Assembly: GCA_021324735.1 (NCBI GenBank) | Contig: JAJPIO010000006.1 | Location: forward strand, 15,667 to 79,666 | Source of the DNA: Bacteroidota bacterium | GTDB taxonomy: Bacteria > Bacteroidota > Ignavibacteria > Palsa-1295 | Length of the DNA: 64,000 nt | Direction of reading: 5' to 3' | Shown here: piece after piece, positions 38,204 through 47,847 of the stretch | How the letters are laid out: each line of letters begins with the position of its first letter | Numbering within the stretch: the first letter of the stretch is position 1 | Notes under the pieces: model-generated | What the model saw: only the letters and a program-made list of their open reading frames with translations | Told to the model about the DNA's origin: nothing | Databases searched by the model: none | Program-made: the position numbers and the translations under genes

Positions 38204-38450
38204 GGCGAGATTACTCTTTTGCGGTGATGTGGCTCGTTTCGAACGACGCTTGTGTCATCTACGCCCGTGCTTCTCGATTGTTACCCAGTTAGGGATTGCT
38301 TCGTCGGAGTCATCTCCCTTGCGGTCGATGCCTCCTTCTCGCAATGACGGCGCTTTTGGGGTGTTGGCCCGGAGCCCGGACTTCGGTCCCCGAACCCCGA
38401 GCCCAAAGGAAACTTCCTGAAACCAAGTTCATGTTTGCGCGTAGCACTCG

Positions 38451-38477
38451 CCACGCGAGAGTGCTAACAGCCGAGTA
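38451..38477 (+). promoter_or_regulatory. CIRCE (HrcA operator) inverted repeat upstream of groES
   Basis: gTAGCACTC-gccacgcga-GAGTGCTAA matches the consensus TTAGCACTC-N9-GAGTGCTAA at 17 of 18 positions. It lies about 170 bp upstream of the groES ATG. Confidence 0.7.
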
Positions 38478-38644: not shown

Positions 38645-38953
38645 ATGAACCTAAAACCATTGCACGATCGCCTGATCGTCCGTCCGGCAAAGCCAGAGGA
38701 AGTGACGAAGGGCGGAATCATCCTTCCGGATACGGCGAAAGAGAAGCCAGTCCAGGGCGAAGTGCTCGCTTGCGGACCGGGCAAGTACGACGAAAGCGGC
38801 AAACTCACCCCGATCGGCGTGAAAGTCGGCGATAAAGTCCTCTATGGTAAGTACTCCGGCACCGAGATCTCTCTCGATGGCGAGGACGTGCTCATCATGC
38901 GCGAAAGCGATGTCTTCGCGATCGTAGAGACGAACGGCAAAGCCAAGAAGTAA
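38645..38953 (+). CDS. groES: co-chaperonin GroES
   Basis: [46 protein letters not shown], 102 aa. Confidence 0.95.
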
Positions 38954-39067: not shown

Positions 39068-40723
<1,656 letters not shown>

Positions 40724-40731
40724 TATCTACA

Positions 40732-40763
40732 AGGCCCGCCGCACGGCGGGCCTTTATATTTTT
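40732..40763 (+). terminator. groESL intrinsic terminator
   Basis: GGCCCGCC-gcac-GGCGGGCC is a perfect 8-bp GC stem followed by TTTATATTTTT. Confidence 0.8.
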
Positions 40764-40776
40764 GTGGAGGTTTGGT

Positions 40777-41676
40777 ATGGCATCAATGGTTCTGGCATTA
40801 CAACAGGCCGCACGAGATCCATCGTATCCAGTCTCAAGGCTTCTTCGAGATGCCGCTACACTCGCATTCAAGGTGCGTATCTCGGGCATGGATGACTTTT
40901 TTGATGGGGAAAGGAATGGCTATGAGGGTAAAGAATTGCCTGATTACAGATGGCTCTCAGGTACTCCTGTCGCGCAAACAACCTTCGGGCGGTGGGTACC
41001 TCTGACCCTGGTTGGTTTCGATCAGGAGGGCTTCTACAAAAGGCCTCTCGTCCATTCCGTATCGGAAATAGAAGAAATGATTGCGCGTGCAGGAGGCACT
41101 ACGCTTGTAATGCCATACCCGAACAAAATTGTTGAAATGTTCCGACCACAAGATCCGGATCTTGGTAGTGCAGGGATTCAAGTCGGAATTCATCAATTCA
41201 AAGGCGTGCTTGAACACGTTAGGGATATGATTCTCAACTTCGCGCTTTCCCTTGAAAAGAAAGGACGCGATGTAAATGAGGAGACGATTGAAATCATAAA
41301 ACGAGATGATCTCAATATTTCAAAAAGCGAGGTCAAAGAAGCAACGACTGTAATAAATATTGAAAATCTTCAAGGGATTGCAGGCACTGTGGCTTCTTCA
41401 TCGGTACGGTTCGGCGATTTTTCTTCAATTTTAAACGTACTGAAAAATGCAAACGTCCCGCAGTCCGAGCGCAATGAACTTGAAAATATTGTGGATGAAG
41501 CTACGACGTTGCCCTCAGACGAACGGAAAGGACTTGCATCGCGCGCAACAGCCTGGCTTGATAGAAACAAATCCTTCCTTTTGACCGCCGGCACTGAGGT
41601 TACGAAGCTACTGCAACGAGCTTCACGTTCTCTAAGCCACACTGATGGACACTGTAGCCGTTCGTATGCTCGATAA
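40777..41676 (+). CDS. AbiTii-like abortive-infection domain protein
   Basis: The start ATG has GGAGG 6 nt upstream. The N-terminus MASMVLALQQAARDPSYPVSRLLRDAATLAFKV...DGERNGYEGKELPDYRWLSG follows the AbiTii N-domain pattern (LILELQ...ELNGY..PeYR.L.G). Region GC is lower than in flanking groEL. Confidence 0.55.
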   Translation: MASMVLALQQAARDPSYPVSRLLRDAATLAFKVRISGMDDFFDGERNGYEGKELPDYRWLSGTPVAQTTFGRWVPLTLVGFDQEGFYKRPLVHSVSEIEEMIARAGGTTLVMPYPNKIVEMFRPQDPDLGSAGIQVGIHQFKGVLEHVRDMILNFALSLEKKGRDVNEETIEIIKRDDLNISKSEVKEATTVINIENLQGIAGTVASSSVRFGDFSSILNVLKNANVPQSERNELENIVDEATTLPSDERKGLASRATAWLDRNKSFLLTAGTEVTKLLQRASRSLSHTDGHCSRSYAR

Positions 41677-42127
41677 TGCAAACGGCCCATATTCATGGGT
41701 TCCTTTGGCATCGTTAGTCGTTGCAGCTCTTGCATCGATCGCGGCCATAATCAGCCCGATTATGTCAAGGAGAACTACGAGACAGCAGATTATCTCTACA
41801 AGCCGCCAAGATTGGCTTAACAAAGTGCGGCTCAAAGTTGCGAAGCACCTCCAACTTACAACGATACTTCACGGGAAGACCTCCCTGTCAAGGCCGTACC
41901 GAGTGCGACAACTAGAAGCACTGGTACTTCTAGAATATCAATTAGAATTACTTTTAAATACGAGCGAGGCGAATCAAGCGAGCATACTCCTTCATCTCCG
42001 CGAATTACGCGATATATGCATTGACAAGCAGCGACTCGCTCAATATGTGCTGTATCGTGATCGTTTTACGAAGGAGTTCGCCTCCTTCCGTGATGGTCTG
42101 TGGAAAGAGATTAAGAAAGGGAGATAG
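41645..42127 (+). CDS. small single-pass membrane protein (candidate partner of the AbiTii-like gene)
   Basis: 160 aa with one TM helix (WVPLASLVVAALASIAAIISPIM), then a charged coiled-coil-like region. The ATG overlaps the upstream gene by 32 nt. Confidence 0.45.
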   Translation: MDTVAVRMLDNANGPYSWVPLASLVVAALASIAAIISPIMSRRTTRQQIISTSRQDWLNKVRLKVAKHLQLTTILHGKTSLSRPYRVRQLEALVLLEYQLELLLNTSEANQASILLHLRELRDICIDKQRLAQYVLYRDRFTKEFASFRDGLWKEIKKGR

Positions 42128-42235
42128 CTTCGATCACAAGCGCAGAGCGGTGAAGTACTCGCAGCCCAGCATGAAGCGAAACGGAATGCTGGGTGGCAAA
42201 GCAAAATAGTGTCGAAGCCCTGAAAGGGCGTTGTA

Positions 42236-42345
42236 CTCCGCCCCTTCAGGGCTAATATTTTTCACGCGTTGCTAACCCAGGGCTATCGTCCCTCGATCAG
42301 GTCGAGGGCAGGCTCCGGGCTGCGAGCACTGCGTCACTTCGTGAC
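42236..42345. repeat. GC-rich palindromic repeat element (copy L) 5' of the hypothetical ORF
   Basis: CCCCTTCAGGGCTAATATTTTTCACGCGTTGCTAACCCAGGGCTA...GGGCTGCGAGCACTGCGTCACTTCGTGACT, with an internal hairpin CCCTCGA-tcagg-TCGAGGG. A partial inverted copy lies at 42150-42178. Confidence 0.6.
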
Positions 42346-42433
42346 TTGCAGCGGGATTTTTGAGGTAGGCCGGCTGTTCTGGTTTACGCATACCTTCAGA
42401 AAATAGAAACAGGCTTTGAGCCGCACAGACCCC

Positions 42434-42919
42434 ATGTCCTCTCGCATCGAAATAACACCGCAGGGACTTGCACTCTCGATCTACTCGGAGATGATCGACG
42501 TCGATTCGTATATCGAGGAGATTGAGACCGAGCTTAATAACGACGAGCGCGAAAGGTTTCTCCGTGTGCTCCGAACTTACTACCTTGCCAGCATTTCTAT
42601 AGCTATCGAAATTGTTGCGAAAACAGAATCCGGCATGAGCGCGGTGCTGACGGAGATAATTGGCCTCGAGCAAGAACGCGGTATAGGTCTGACACTTCTG
42701 GAGATCCGAACAGTATTCTCCGATATGGTCGAGCTTCTCACTGACCAGGCACAGCCACTGGAGTGGGGACTTGCCTGGGGAAGCCGTCATAATTTCTCCA
42801 CCTTGAATATCGAGCAGCTTCTGGTAATTTCCGTTTGGGCTGAGACGACCTTCCAGGCTTCACTCGAATTTCTATCTCGGTTCAAAATTCTCGCTGGCTT
42901 CCCCGCATCTCGAAATTGA
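42434..42919 (+). CDS. acidic hypothetical protein bracketed by palindromic direct repeats
   Basis: ORF of 161 aa from the first ATG (the track ORF begins at a TTG at 42416). No recognisable domain. The antisense ORF 42272-42790 has a Cys/His/Arg-rich junk-like composition. Confidence 0.45.
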   Translation: MSSRIEITPQGLALSIYSEMIDVDSYIEEIETELNNDERERFLRVLRTYYLASISIAIEIVAKTESGMSAVLTEIIGLEQERGIGLTLLEIRTVFSDMVELLTDQAQPLEWGLAWGSRHNFSTLNIEQLLVISVWAETTFQASLEFLSRFKILAGFPASRN

Positions 42920-42941
42920 TCTTCAATGGCGGCGTACCCCG

Positions 42942-43028
42942 CACATCGCCCCCAGGGCTAATCTTTTTCAAACATTGCTAACCCAGGGCTAACGCCCTGG
43001 GCTGCGAGTACTTCGTCACTCCGTGACT
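42942..43028. repeat. GC-rich palindromic repeat element (copy R) 3' of the hypothetical ORF
   Basis: CCCCCAGGGCTAATCTTTTTCAAACATTGCTAACCCAGGGCTAACGCCCTGGGCTGCGAGTACTTCGTCACTCCGTGACT is about 90% identical to copy L, minus a 31-bp internal segment. It contains the perfect hairpin CCCAGGGC-taac-GCCCTGGG. Confidence 0.6.
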
Positions 43029-43172
43029 AAACTGACACTGTTATCTCCCTAATCCAATAATCTCCCCAAATCCACGTTCAGACGACTTGCTAATTCAGGC
43101 AATCATCTCTCCGAGGATCCACCGCAGCTAATCGGTTCGCGACACAAAACACCTCCCGGTTGTTTATAGTAT

Positions 43173-43880: not shown

Positions 43881-44087
43881 TCACTCCGTAAACTCAAAGA
43901 GTATTTTTGATTTCCCAAACCTATCGATTCGAATAATATTCGATGGCCGCTCTGACTCAGCAATAGGACGAACGATTCGAAGCGCCTCCTCTTCCGTAGG
44001 GACGCCGGCTGCCACTTGAGTGACCATGGTATCGTGACGACTTACATTCCAGTGGTTCTCAAATTCCGAGAGTACGAATCGTACCAT
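43881..44087 (-). CDS. small hypothetical protein (possibly DUF2188-like)
   Basis: 68 aa. The HWNVSRHDT...EEEALRIVRPIAE pattern loosely resembles DUF2188 (W-x-V-x-R...eA). Weak call. Confidence 0.3.
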   Translation of the reverse strand: MVRFVLSEFENHWNVSRHDTMVTQVAAGVPTEEEALRIVRPIAESERPSNIIRIDRFGKSKILFEFTE

Positions 44088-45533: not shown

Positions 45534-45968
45534 ATGTGTTTCAGTAGAGACATGCTCAGCCTGCACGTATCGTTAGCGCTCTTGCTCTCGACGCTCCTCA
45601 CAGCTCCCCAACCAGCCAAAGGAAGCCTCGCGCAAGAAGTGCATAAGCTCACGGAAGCGATCAACCGTCGCGACCTGAATGCCCTTAAAGCTGAGGTGAG
45701 TCCGAGCCGAATTTATGTCGAGATCGCAGATAAGCCGGGTGCTTATCTTACGAGCAGTCAGACGGTCGTTGTTATGGAGAGCTTCATGCAAAACCGGACA
45801 TCGCTTAACTCATCCTTCGAGTTTGTTACGGACGACGGCGAGCGAGGAAGCGCCTCCGGGCAATTAGCAGCCCGCTATGATGGGAGGCCCGTCACCTATC
45901 GGCTGAATTTTGGCTTTCTGAAAAATGACCAGGGAAAATGGCAGCTCACTAAAATATCGATGAAATGA
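45534..45968 (+). CDS. secreted hypothetical protein (NTF2/SnoaL-like size)
   Basis: Signal peptide MCFSRDMLSLHVSLALLLSTLLTAPQPAKG, 144 aa. Confidence 0.5.
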   Translation: MCFSRDMLSLHVSLALLLSTLLTAPQPAKGSLAQEVHKLTEAINRRDLNALKAEVSPSRIYVEIADKPGAYLTSSQTVVVMESFMQNRTSLNSSFEFVTDDGERGSASGQLAARYDGRPVTYRLNFGFLKNDQGKWQLTKISMK

Positions 45969-46265
45969 AGCATGGGTGTTAAATTCACGTAATATGGTCA
46001 AAAATCGTGACCTTGTGGTAACAATCTTCACTCCTAAGCGTTATTAGTAGCGTATCTGGTTTAGTTTTTTGCAGGCATATTTTCAGTTGGCCTGCTAATT
46101 GCTTAACAGCTACCCAAACGTCTCCTATTGTACACACAAACTTAGCGATTCTCAGAGAAATAAAAAGAAAAAATCCTGAAATTTCTAACGAATAGCGTAA
46201 CAATCAGAGAGACACTCCGTACAAGTTTAAGAAAGCAGTAGAGAAACTCATAGCTTAATAGGTTT

Positions 46266-46297
46266 AGCCGGGGTCTAGGGACAACCTCCGGCTTTTT
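46266..46297 (+). terminator. intrinsic terminator 1 in the intergenic leader upstream of cbs
   Basis: AGCCGG-ggtctagggacaacct-CCGGCT followed by TTTTT. Confidence 0.5.
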
Positions 46298-46321
46298 GAA
46301 GACACAACACAACTCAATCAG

Positions 46322-46355
46322 ACCTCGGGTAACTCTCACCACCCGGGGTTTTTTA
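46322..46355 (+). terminator. intrinsic terminator 2 in the intergenic leader upstream of cbs
   Basis: CCTCGGG-taactctcacca-CCCGGGG is a 7-bp stem with one G-U pair, followed by TTTTTTATT. Confidence 0.5.
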
Positions 46356-46485
46356 TTCCACTCGCTCCCTATCGCCCTTGACAGTCTCTCAGCGAAGTTA
46401 TCGTACCGGAAGAATCAAATATTGAATAATCATGACGAGAATAGTGTTTTGATATTCGTATTACCTGTTACTCCAAACTCACCGC

Positions 46486-47847
46486 ATGAAGTACGCGAAT
46501 TCGATCCTCGATTTTATTGGAAATACCCCGCTTCTAAAACTTAATAAAGTCATTCCGAAAGGTCTTAAAAGCACGGTCCTCGTAAAGCTTGAAGAATTTA
46601 ATCCTGGTGGCTCCGTAAAAGACCGTATCGGTATTCGAATGATCGAGGATGCCGAACGCTCCGGTCGCCTCAAGCCCGGCGGTACTATCGTTGAGCCGAC
46701 GAGTGGCAACACCGGTATTGGACTCATGCTGGCCGCCACACAGAAGGGTTACAAGTGTGTATTTGTAATGACCGATAAAGCCTCTATCGAGCGTGTACGT
46801 TACTTAAAGGCAATGGGCGCTGAGATCGTTGTAGTATCGAGCGCAGCGAAATCCACTTCGCCGGAATACTATTACAACACCGCCGTTCGCCTTTCGCAGG
46901 AAATTCCAGGCGCTATCATGCTCAACCAGTATGATAATCCGATAAACCCCGAAACACATTATACGACGACGGGCCCGGAGATCTGGCGCGATACCGAAGG
47001 AAAGCTTACACATTTTATCGCCGGTATGGGCACGGGTGGTACGATCAGCGGTAATGCACGCTACTTAAAAGAAAAGAATAAAAATATTAAAGTTATCGGT
47101 GCGGACCCTGCCGGCTCTTCTATTAAAACCTTCTTCGAGACAGGCCGGCTCGTAGAAGCGCTTCCTTATATGGTCGAAGGTGTCGGACAAGAGCGTATTC
47201 CGGTCAACCTTCATCTTAAGTATGTCGATGAGGTGATAAACGTTGCTGATAAGGATTCCTTCCTCATGGCGCGCCGCTTGGCGCGCGAAGAAGGTATTCT
47301 TTGCGGCGGCTCCTCCGGTATGAATGTATGGGCAGCGATCAAGGTGGCTGAGAAAGCACCCGAAGGCAGCATCATTGTAACGATCATTTGCGACACCGGA
47401 GAGCGCTATCTTACCAAGCACCATTCGGATGAATGGCTGAAAGAGAAGCGACTGCTCGAAACAGAGAGATTGTCCATCGGCGTAATGGCCGGACTTAAGA
47501 AAAGCCGAATCCAAAAGCTTCTCAGCATTGCACCGCATGACACCGTTCGTGAAGCGATCCGTATCATGGATGAGTCGGGTATTTCGCAATTACCAGTCCT
47601 CGACTCGGAAGGTAAGTCTGTGGGCTCGGTACGGGAATCGAAACTGATGTCTAAGGCGCTGGAGGATCGTGACATTCTTGAACGGCCGATCATCGACGTT
47701 ATGGACCCCTCATTCCCAGTCATTGATGAAAGCAAGGACACGAAGACCGCCGTTTCGCTTCTCCGGGATTCTCCTGCGATCCTTGTCGAAGAATTCGGCA
47801 AAGTCACGGCAATCGTAACGCGGCATGATGTGCTGGAATATATCTGA
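46486..47847 (+). CDS. cbs: cystathionine beta-synthase (PLP CysK-fold + tandem CBS domains)
   Basis: The N-terminus has GNTPL and the PLP lysine context ([11 protein letters not shown]); GTGGT is also present. The C-terminal ~120 aa form a CBS pair ([11 protein letters not shown]...LPVLD ... [14 protein letters not shown]). Confidence 0.85.

Follow-up and report, generated by a model that had tools for sequence, protein, structure and literature searches.

What occupies the DNA directly behind the groESL operon of a Bacteroidota bacterium of the lineage Ignavibacteria, Palsa-1295 (assembly GCA_021324735.1, contig JAJPIO010000006.1), and how did it come to be there? In the 64,000-nt stretch of this contig analysed here (hereafter the window), the groESL terminator is followed by an open reading frame (ORF) for an AbiTii-domain protein (ORF1), by a second one for a small, predicted membrane protein (ORF2) and by a third one bracketed by repeats (ORF3), a segment that a sequence-only reading had taken as a whole for a low-GC insertion and candidate defence islet. 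The explanation favoured here, in which we place about even confidence, is that horizontal transfer brought in ORF1 and ORF2 as an abortive-infection-type module with coupled translation, now lodged in a hotspot for insertions at the 3' end of groEL in this lineage. The features concerned are the following.

38645-38953: groES, which together with groEL makes up groESL.
39080-40723: groEL, directly 5' of the terminator.
40731-40764, plus strand: groESL intrinsic terminator, with the stem-loop at 40731-40754 followed by a T-run.
40767-40771, plus strand: GGAGG ribosome-binding site of ORF1, read in the sequence, 5 nt before the ATG at 40777.
40777-41676, plus strand: ORF1, AbiTii-domain protein of 299 aa, with Pfam and PADLOC matches.
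40786-41283: AbiTii alpha+beta domain of ORF1, aa 4-169.
ORF1, aa 170-212: low-confidence linker.
41419-41637: conserved helical C-terminal domain of ORF1, aa 215-287, with the motif PQSERNELENI.
ORF1, last 17 aa: lineage-specific tail, overlapping ORF2.
41645-42127, plus strand: ORF2, predicted membrane-anchored four-helix-bundle protein of 160 aa, defined by a HMMER family and an AlphaFold2 model.
41696-41764: predicted transmembrane helix of ORF2, at about aa 18-40.

The suggestion that ORF1 follows the AbiTii pattern was strongly borne out. Its residues 4-169 match the Pfam family PF18864 with an E-value of 7.9e-27 (95.1 bits, far over the cut-off of 27.6), aligning to positions 2-174 of the 189 in the profile, and when the region was examined with PADLOC the AbiTii model matched the same protein at 105.8 bits (E 7.9e-31). 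In the AlphaFold2 model (pLDDT 82.8) residues 1-169 are built of mixed helices and strands with pLDDT above 90, and no significant fold match was found for the model in the PDB or among viral folds. Residues E45, Y49 and P55 are invariant in 78 family sequences, the first of them being probably the "highly conserved glutamate" of the AbiTii domain noted by Anantharaman et al. (2013; PMC3710099). Profile match, alpha+beta model and invariant E45 place ORF1 in the PF18864 family, a naming that is ordinary in itself, since it lies within reach of any Pfam-based annotation.

What is beyond routine annotation is the C-terminal domain of ORF1. In the AbiTii fusions described so far, the C-terminus is a HEPN domain of the c2405 or the Ymh family (PMC3710099). 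ORF1 has the characters of AbiTii-domain proteins in general, namely an N-terminal alpha+beta domain of about 170 aa, the invariant glutamate and defence-type neighbours, but its C-terminus is a helical domain of about 75 aa with the PQSERNELENI block, in which no HEPN domain, no Rx4-6H motif and no Pfam match were detected. For want of a HEPN domain, ORF1 therefore falls outside the described AbiTii-HEPN fusions. Nor was any other recognisable effector domain found.

The family to which ORF1 belongs is widely dispersed. A first search returned 3 relatives and a profile search 112, nearly all of 255-300 aa and with AbiTii as their sole Pfam domain, the C-terminal PQSERNELENI block being common to the closest ones. 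Among GTDB genomes the gene occurs, solo, in Verrucomicrobiota, Planctomycetota, Nitrospira and one metagenome-assembled genome of Nanoarchaeota, with PIN-like genes, an integrase, a DUF262-like gene and an MNT/HepT pair as neighbours (several of these recognised by eye). In metagenomes it adjoins genes for TIR, Mrr/NA-iREase, resolvase, AAA_15/21 and HEPN_LA2681 proteins. It is also present on 49 plasmids and 9 viral contigs; on an Acinetobacter plasmid it lies beside genes for an "abortive infection family protein", a GNAT/DUF1778 toxin-antitoxin pair and a restriction-modification subunit. The gene found 3' of it varies, being Bflower in locus L003, DUF262-like (by eye) in L012 and MNT/HepT in L013, with none in L009 and L010. 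Such a distribution characterises mobile genes of the defence type, and the TIR, Mrr, toxin-antitoxin and recombinase genes around the family agree with the defence-type setting that had been claimed for the segment. Some copies retain no more than the C-terminal half or are interrupted by a frameshift (L011 2607-3062, L013 58-959, L014 5896-6222), which gives them the look of a dispensable mobile gene in decay.

Both features ascribed to ORF2 from the letters alone, a single transmembrane segment and an overlap of 32 nt with the 3' end of ORF1, are present. A word-indexed search gave a single relative, P0006, with 58% identity (contig L006), and a HMMER search of 1.84 billion representatives gave 39 cluster representatives of the family at E<1e-3. 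These 39 proteins measure 135-185 aa, typically about 155 aa, have one N-terminal transmembrane helix and share the motifs S.NRQxWINxLR, LNPxExDH and ILKREWxRVKxG; the closest of them also keep the N-terminus MDTVxV, which supports the ORF2 start at 41645. In the AlphaFold model of ORF2 (pLDDT 91) the transmembrane segment runs into a long helix, residues 19-80, that packs with three more helices. ORF2 matched nothing in Pfam, PADLOC, NCBIfam or PHROG, a plasmid search with it was negative too, and 37 of its relatives showed no match to a known family. ORF2 thus is a member of a previously unannotated family, modelled as an N-terminal membrane helix joined to a four-helix bundle. Its identification with a known defence effector, or with the AbiTi protein of the lactococcal AbiT system, was tried and rejected, as no family, plasmid or fold match was obtained.

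Another property of the ORF2 family is its position. In all five independent contexts considered (the window, L006, L048, L050 and L052) the gene lies 10-60 nt 3' of a co-directional gene or overlaps it, and this upstream gene is variable, encoding proteins of 320 aa in L048, 773 aa in L050 and 106 aa in L052. The 320-aa partner was considered as a hidden AbiTii protein and dismissed, BLASTP being negative and the hhalign probability 0.6%. A constant place behind variable partners suggests that ORF2-family proteins may serve as a shared effector or adaptor. With regard to ORF1 itself, the short contig L006 (979 bp) is informative, because an overlapping frame (...HGHSLRSHSR*) continues through the 38 nt located 5' of its ORF2 homologue and ends just where ORF1 does, meaning that the pair and its overlap recur. 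This recurrent coupling to an unannotated membrane-protein family is a second element beyond routine annotation.

The third is found behind the groEL genes of relatives, where cassette arrays duplicate the groEL tail. Metagenome contigs were scanned with the DNA encoding the GroEL tail, and nine contigs carry a GroEL 90-94% identical to that of the window. None of the nine contains ORF1, ORF2, ORF3, the upstream hydrolase, the downstream methyltransferase or the GH1 gene. In relatives with 92-94% identical GroEL, the genes after groEL encode BrnT/BrnA, HicA/HicB, ParE, a Gp49-like toxin or unknown proteins; over the contigs as a group, which differ from each other in this respect, there are also a TM2-domain protein, an unknown protein of 278-282 aa and proteins with multiple transmembrane segments. 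The gene that comes next after groEL is read in the same direction and begins 4-35 nt beyond the terminator T-run, both in the window and in eight of eight relatives. Tandem cassettes occupy this place in L031 (8196-10560) and L022 (11-2380), in L032 (2492-3950), in L037 (232-1030) and in L048 (3247-3915), each of them closed by 66-69 nt that repeat the groEL 3' end, with a terminator behind, and encoding BrnT/BrnA, HicA/HicB or a transmembrane protein. The tail copies are 94-98.5% identical and the cassettes between them about 65% in DNA (41-52% for the BrnT proteins), for which reason serial site-specific insertion fits better than recent tandem duplication. L031 and L032 share the same distal cassette (97% identity) behind different proximal ones. 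No integrase was seen in the 1.4-5.7 kb beyond the arrays, as inspected by eye and by Pfam scans of selected ORFs.

Both families treated above also turn up in this slot. In L003 an AbiTii gene whose product is 45% identical to ORF1 stands directly 3' of a related groEL (about 90% identity in GroEL), and in L048 the cassette that follows the second groEL-tail copy consists of the ORF2 homologue and its 320-aa partner. The 278-282-aa protein fills the first slot after groEL in L027 (2881-3717) and L045 (487-1335, both groEL-oriented) and has no Pfam or PADLOC match; the GroEL tail of L027 is the most window-like.

The base composition of the segment had been the visual argument for an insertion, and this part of the sequence-only reading had to be abandoned. 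The segment 40764-43172 has a GC content of 0.492 against 0.499 for the window, which places it at the 28th percentile of 2.4-kb windows, so that as a whole it is not low in GC. The outliers are groES and groEL, with a GC content of 0.56-0.57 and a third-codon-position GC (GC3) of 0.71; the contrast perceived by eye arises because these two genes are unusually GC-rich, and a low-GC island is ruled out. Within the segment, ORF1 and ORF2 alone deviate mildly, with a GC3 of 0.417 and 0.478, respectively (26 long genes average 0.525, sd 0.046), and with codon log-odds of 0.116 and 0.016, the 26 long genes spanning 0.11-0.29.

The layout behind groESL gives some indication of how ORF1 and ORF2 may be expressed. 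The terminator and the GGAGG site had both been reported correctly: the stem-loop pairs over 10 bp, 8 of them GC, around a loop of 4, with TATATTTTTG as the tail, and ORF1 has its own ribosome-binding site. Only 13 nt separate the T-run from the ORF1 start, with no space for a standard promoter, and for this reason ORF1-ORF2 are probably expressed by read-through from groESL. A CIRCE/HrcA operator was noted 5' of groES at 38441-38467 (GTAGCACTC-N9-GAGTGCTAA, 1 mismatch), which makes it probable that the groESL operon is HrcA-regulated.

These observations can be assembled into a working model. The lineage would use the slot behind the groESL terminator as a landing pad for small toxin-antitoxin or defence cassettes, ORF1-ORF2 being one of them, and the expression of this pair, fed by read-through, would be low under basal conditions and increase with stress. 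ORF1 would be the cytoplasmic sensing or regulating component, in which the AbiTii domain is joined to a small helical domain and not to a HEPN RNase. ORF2 would be a single-pass membrane protein whose bundle is predicted to be cytoplasmic, given the positive charges directly after the transmembrane helix, and would act as candidate effector or anchor. Upon infection ORF1 would engage ORF2, leading to membrane damage or growth arrest.

Several observations weigh against this explanation. The window has neither a second copy of the groEL tail (blastn-short and tblastn over the 64 kb) nor an integrase or transposase among the ORFs that flank the ORF1-ORF3 segment, so that insertion at this particular site is deduced from the relatives. 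No empty site was found in close relatives, and flanking synteny is lost in those with 92-94% identical GroEL, which have in common with the window neither the hydrolase gene upstream nor the methyltransferase/GH1 genes downstream and hence make a clean comparison with and without the insertion impossible. The proposed comparison of gene order behind groEL was in this way answered in part: contents do vary among these relatives, but an empty site and shared flanks are missing. As for ORF2, a Foldseek search of its model against the PDB yielded nothing significant (best E 0.5), and the partners upstream of its relatives in L048, L050, L052 and L021 have no Pfam or PADLOC match. Finally, no ORF2-like neighbour accompanies the ORF1 family in about 13 other contexts. 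The partnership of an AbiTii protein with a transmembrane protein, which had been put forward as undescribed, consequently holds to the extent that it recurs in L006, but it is not general; its absence from those contexts makes it lineage-specific.

The same absence opens the way to the main rival, since if most AbiTii-family members do without an ORF2-like neighbour, ORF1 may act alone and ORF2 be unrelated to it. ORF1 would then suffice by itself as a defence or selfish gene of AbiTii type, and the overlap would be incidental. This view draws on a gene that stands alone elsewhere with a different downstream gene each time, and on the last 17 aa of ORF1, which create the overlap and show neither conservation in the family nor high confidence in the model. 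We consider it unlikely, albeit deserving of serious attention, because L006 has the same overlapping pair (58% identity), genes of the ORF2 family invariably sit in tight coupling behind a co-directional gene, and ORF1 and ORF2 are both atypical in codon usage. Less likely than this rival are two other roles. Were the pair a toxin-antitoxin or addiction module that does not act directly against phages, with ORF1 neutralising a membrane toxin ORF2 or the reverse, this would suit a hotspot dominated in the relatives by type II toxin-antitoxin pairs and an overlap typical of such operons. However, neither ORF1 nor ORF2 has a toxin or antitoxin match in Pfam, NCBIfam or PADLOC, their sizes (299 and 160 aa) and domains fit no known toxin-antitoxin family, and AbiTii is named from an abortive-infection system and has relatives beside defence genes; we therefore think it improbable. 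Abortive infection and toxin-antitoxin function are not mutually exclusive. The idea that ORF1-ORF2 are stress-response accessory genes of the groESL operon, co-regulated with heat shock, draws on two lineages, those of the window and of L003, in which groEL is immediately followed by an AbiTii-type gene, on the lack of promoter space and on the CIRCE operator. It appears very improbable, considering that the two AbiTii proteins are 45% identical where the GroEL proteins reach about 90%, that other relatives with 92-94% identical GroEL have no such genes, and that the family is scattered over phyla, plasmids and viral contigs, includes decayed copies and is atypical in codon usage.

A bolder version of the favoured explanation can also be formulated, in which mini-cassettes with toxin-antitoxin, Abi or unknown genes, and with neither integrase nor promoter, attach at the last ~66 nt of groEL, stack in tandem and are expressed by read-through, ORF1-ORF2 constituting an undescribed two-component abortive-infection system. 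The arrays would then amount to an integron-like store wired to the GroESL stress response, itself plausibly raised also by phage infection, and the system would consist of an AbiTii sensor and a membrane-anchored four-helix-bundle effector whose family pairs with many upstream sensors. We regard this combination as speculative and rather unlikely.

The abortive-infection-type module favoured here differs from the known systems that it resembles. In lactococci the gene abiTi is reportedly followed by abiTii (Bouchard et al. 2002). Here the upstream gene is groEL and the small partner lies downstream, is predicted to be membrane-anchored and has no PADLOC, Pfam or NCBIfam match (that PADLOC has an AbiTi model is unconfirmed). 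With no AbiTi partner and a different gene order, ORF1 falls outside the lactococcal AbiT system, in spite of both being two-gene units with one AbiTii-domain partner and a small second one. AbiT of Lactococcus lactis is a two-component abortive-infection system made of AbiTi and AbiTii, the former being predicted to resemble an endoribonuclease (PMC13064643). As to the insertion site, staphylococcal phage-inducible chromosomal islands (PICIs) such as SeCISE48 integrate at an attB site overlapping the last 18 bp of groEL (PMC8125051). Foreign DNA at the groEL 3' end, with the gene end duplicated or reconstituted, is likewise found in L031, L032, L037 and L048 (66-69-nt tails), but the cassettes measure 0.7-1.6 kb, carry 1-4 small genes and no visible integrase, are arranged in tandem and belong to an unrelated environmental lineage. 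Of the two marks of a PICI-like island at this site, the tail repeat is seen in L031, L032, L037, L022 and L048, whereas the window itself displays neither tail duplication nor integrase. Some defence systems combine a cytoplasmic sensing protein with a small transmembrane effector. ORF1-ORF2 share with them the juxtaposition of genes for a cytoplasmic protein and a small membrane protein, but ORF2 is unrelated to PADLOC models and solved structures, and its part as effector is a purely conjectural one.

The AbiTii domain has been known for more than ten years and, to our knowledge, its mechanism has never been demonstrated. A non-HEPN AbiTii subfamily associated with a membrane protein offers a compact two-gene construct with which AbiTii sensing and signalling could be probed, and an ORF2 family standing behind variable partners resembles the usual arrangement of effector or adaptor modules that defence systems share. 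The arrays at the groEL 3' end suggest that uncultured environmental bacteria possess a possibly undescribed hotspot, perhaps even a small mobile-cassette system of a new kind, with expression plausibly tied to the heat-shock regulon. If this is true, the region behind groEL would be useful for mining new defence and toxin-antitoxin genes.

There remains ORF3, which had been included in the candidate islet. The features downstream of ORF2 are these.

42145-42169, minus strand: partial inverted copy of the repeat 3' arm, 88% complementary to 42997-43021 (3 mismatches).
42216-42346, plus strand: repeat copy A, opening with a terminator-like hairpin (42216-42253), then AATATTTTT, and including an Acido-Lenti-1-like unit at 42276-42346.
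42434-42919, plus strand: ORF3, acidic orphan of 161 aa with host-like codon usage and no family match.
42930-43028, plus strand: repeat copy B, in which 42982-43028 is the Acido-Lenti-1 RNA motif (Rfam RF01687).

The earlier description of this part was accurate, ORF3 being acidic on inspection and bracketed by palindromic direct repeats (42247-42346 and 42953-43028, 86-87% identical) with internal hairpins. The repeats are unique to the locus within the 64 kb, with about zero chance matches expected, and their fold z-scores are -3.9 for copy A and -3.4 for copy B. Copy B reaches 38.1 bits, the gathering score being 37 (E 4.6e-5 over all of the window), and is the sole Rfam match in the 64 kb, conforming to the two-hairpin consensus of Acido-Lenti-1. 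Copy A falls under the threshold with 14.5 bits (42218-42253); its two-hairpin unit is diverged, with an extra hairpin inserted in loop 1. In the original alignment Acido-Lenti-1 is a dispersed and often locally clustered intergenic element, with dozens of copies in Lentisphaera araneosa and about 12 in 'Koribacter' (NC_008009) (Weinberg et al. 2010; PMC2864571), and the clustering in the window is as in Lentisphaera. The flanking repeats are thus most simply interpreted, in our own reading, as intergenic elements resembling repetitive extragenic palindromic (REP) sequences, and the hairpin and T-run units that open them could terminate ORF2 and ORF3. Since no match at the gathering score was found in the relatives' loci, Acido-Lenti-1 does not mark the hotspot in general.

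A different REP-like palindromic repeat (GTGTAGAACAGGC...GCCTGTTCTACAC) was observed 3' of ORF2 homologues, in L048 (5620-5760 and 6120-6220) and L006 (640-770). In L048 it brackets a 91-aa acidic ORF, a layout that parallels ORF3 between the window's own copies.

It could be argued from this parallel, and from hairpin-bearing direct repeats flanking a single ORF, that the ORF3 unit is a mobile cassette of the defence islet, either integron-like or borne by a miniature inverted-repeat transposable element. This seems very improbable, because copy B corresponds to the dispersed element of Weinberg et al. and the in-frame codon log-odds of ORF3 (0.195) lie inside the range of host genes. An integron attC reading was rejected as well: inspection of 42130-42420 and 42920-43060 gave no fitting RYYYAAC/GTTRRRY cores (no attC covariance-model search being made), the spacers measure 250-300 nt and no integrase is near. 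ORF3 itself has no family match in Pfam, PADLOC and other collections and no plasmid match, and forms a cluster of one. It is probably a separate native orphan gene outside the ORF1-ORF2 module, and its inclusion in a defence islet was not sustained. An antisense ORF of 172 aa (42272-42790, minus strand) overlaps it and is probably not a gene, given its codon score of 0.04 against the 0.195 of ORF3.

Beyond the segment lie two small ORFs with no Pfam or NCBIfam match, at 43881-44087 (minus strand, 68 aa) and 45534-45968 (plus strand, 144 aa). They are followed by a stretch of about 500 nt (45970-46485) with a GC content of 0.37-0.42, which has no long ORF and no Rfam match at the gathering score, and 3' of it stands a cystathionine beta-synthase-like gene with PALP and CBS domains (46486-47847).

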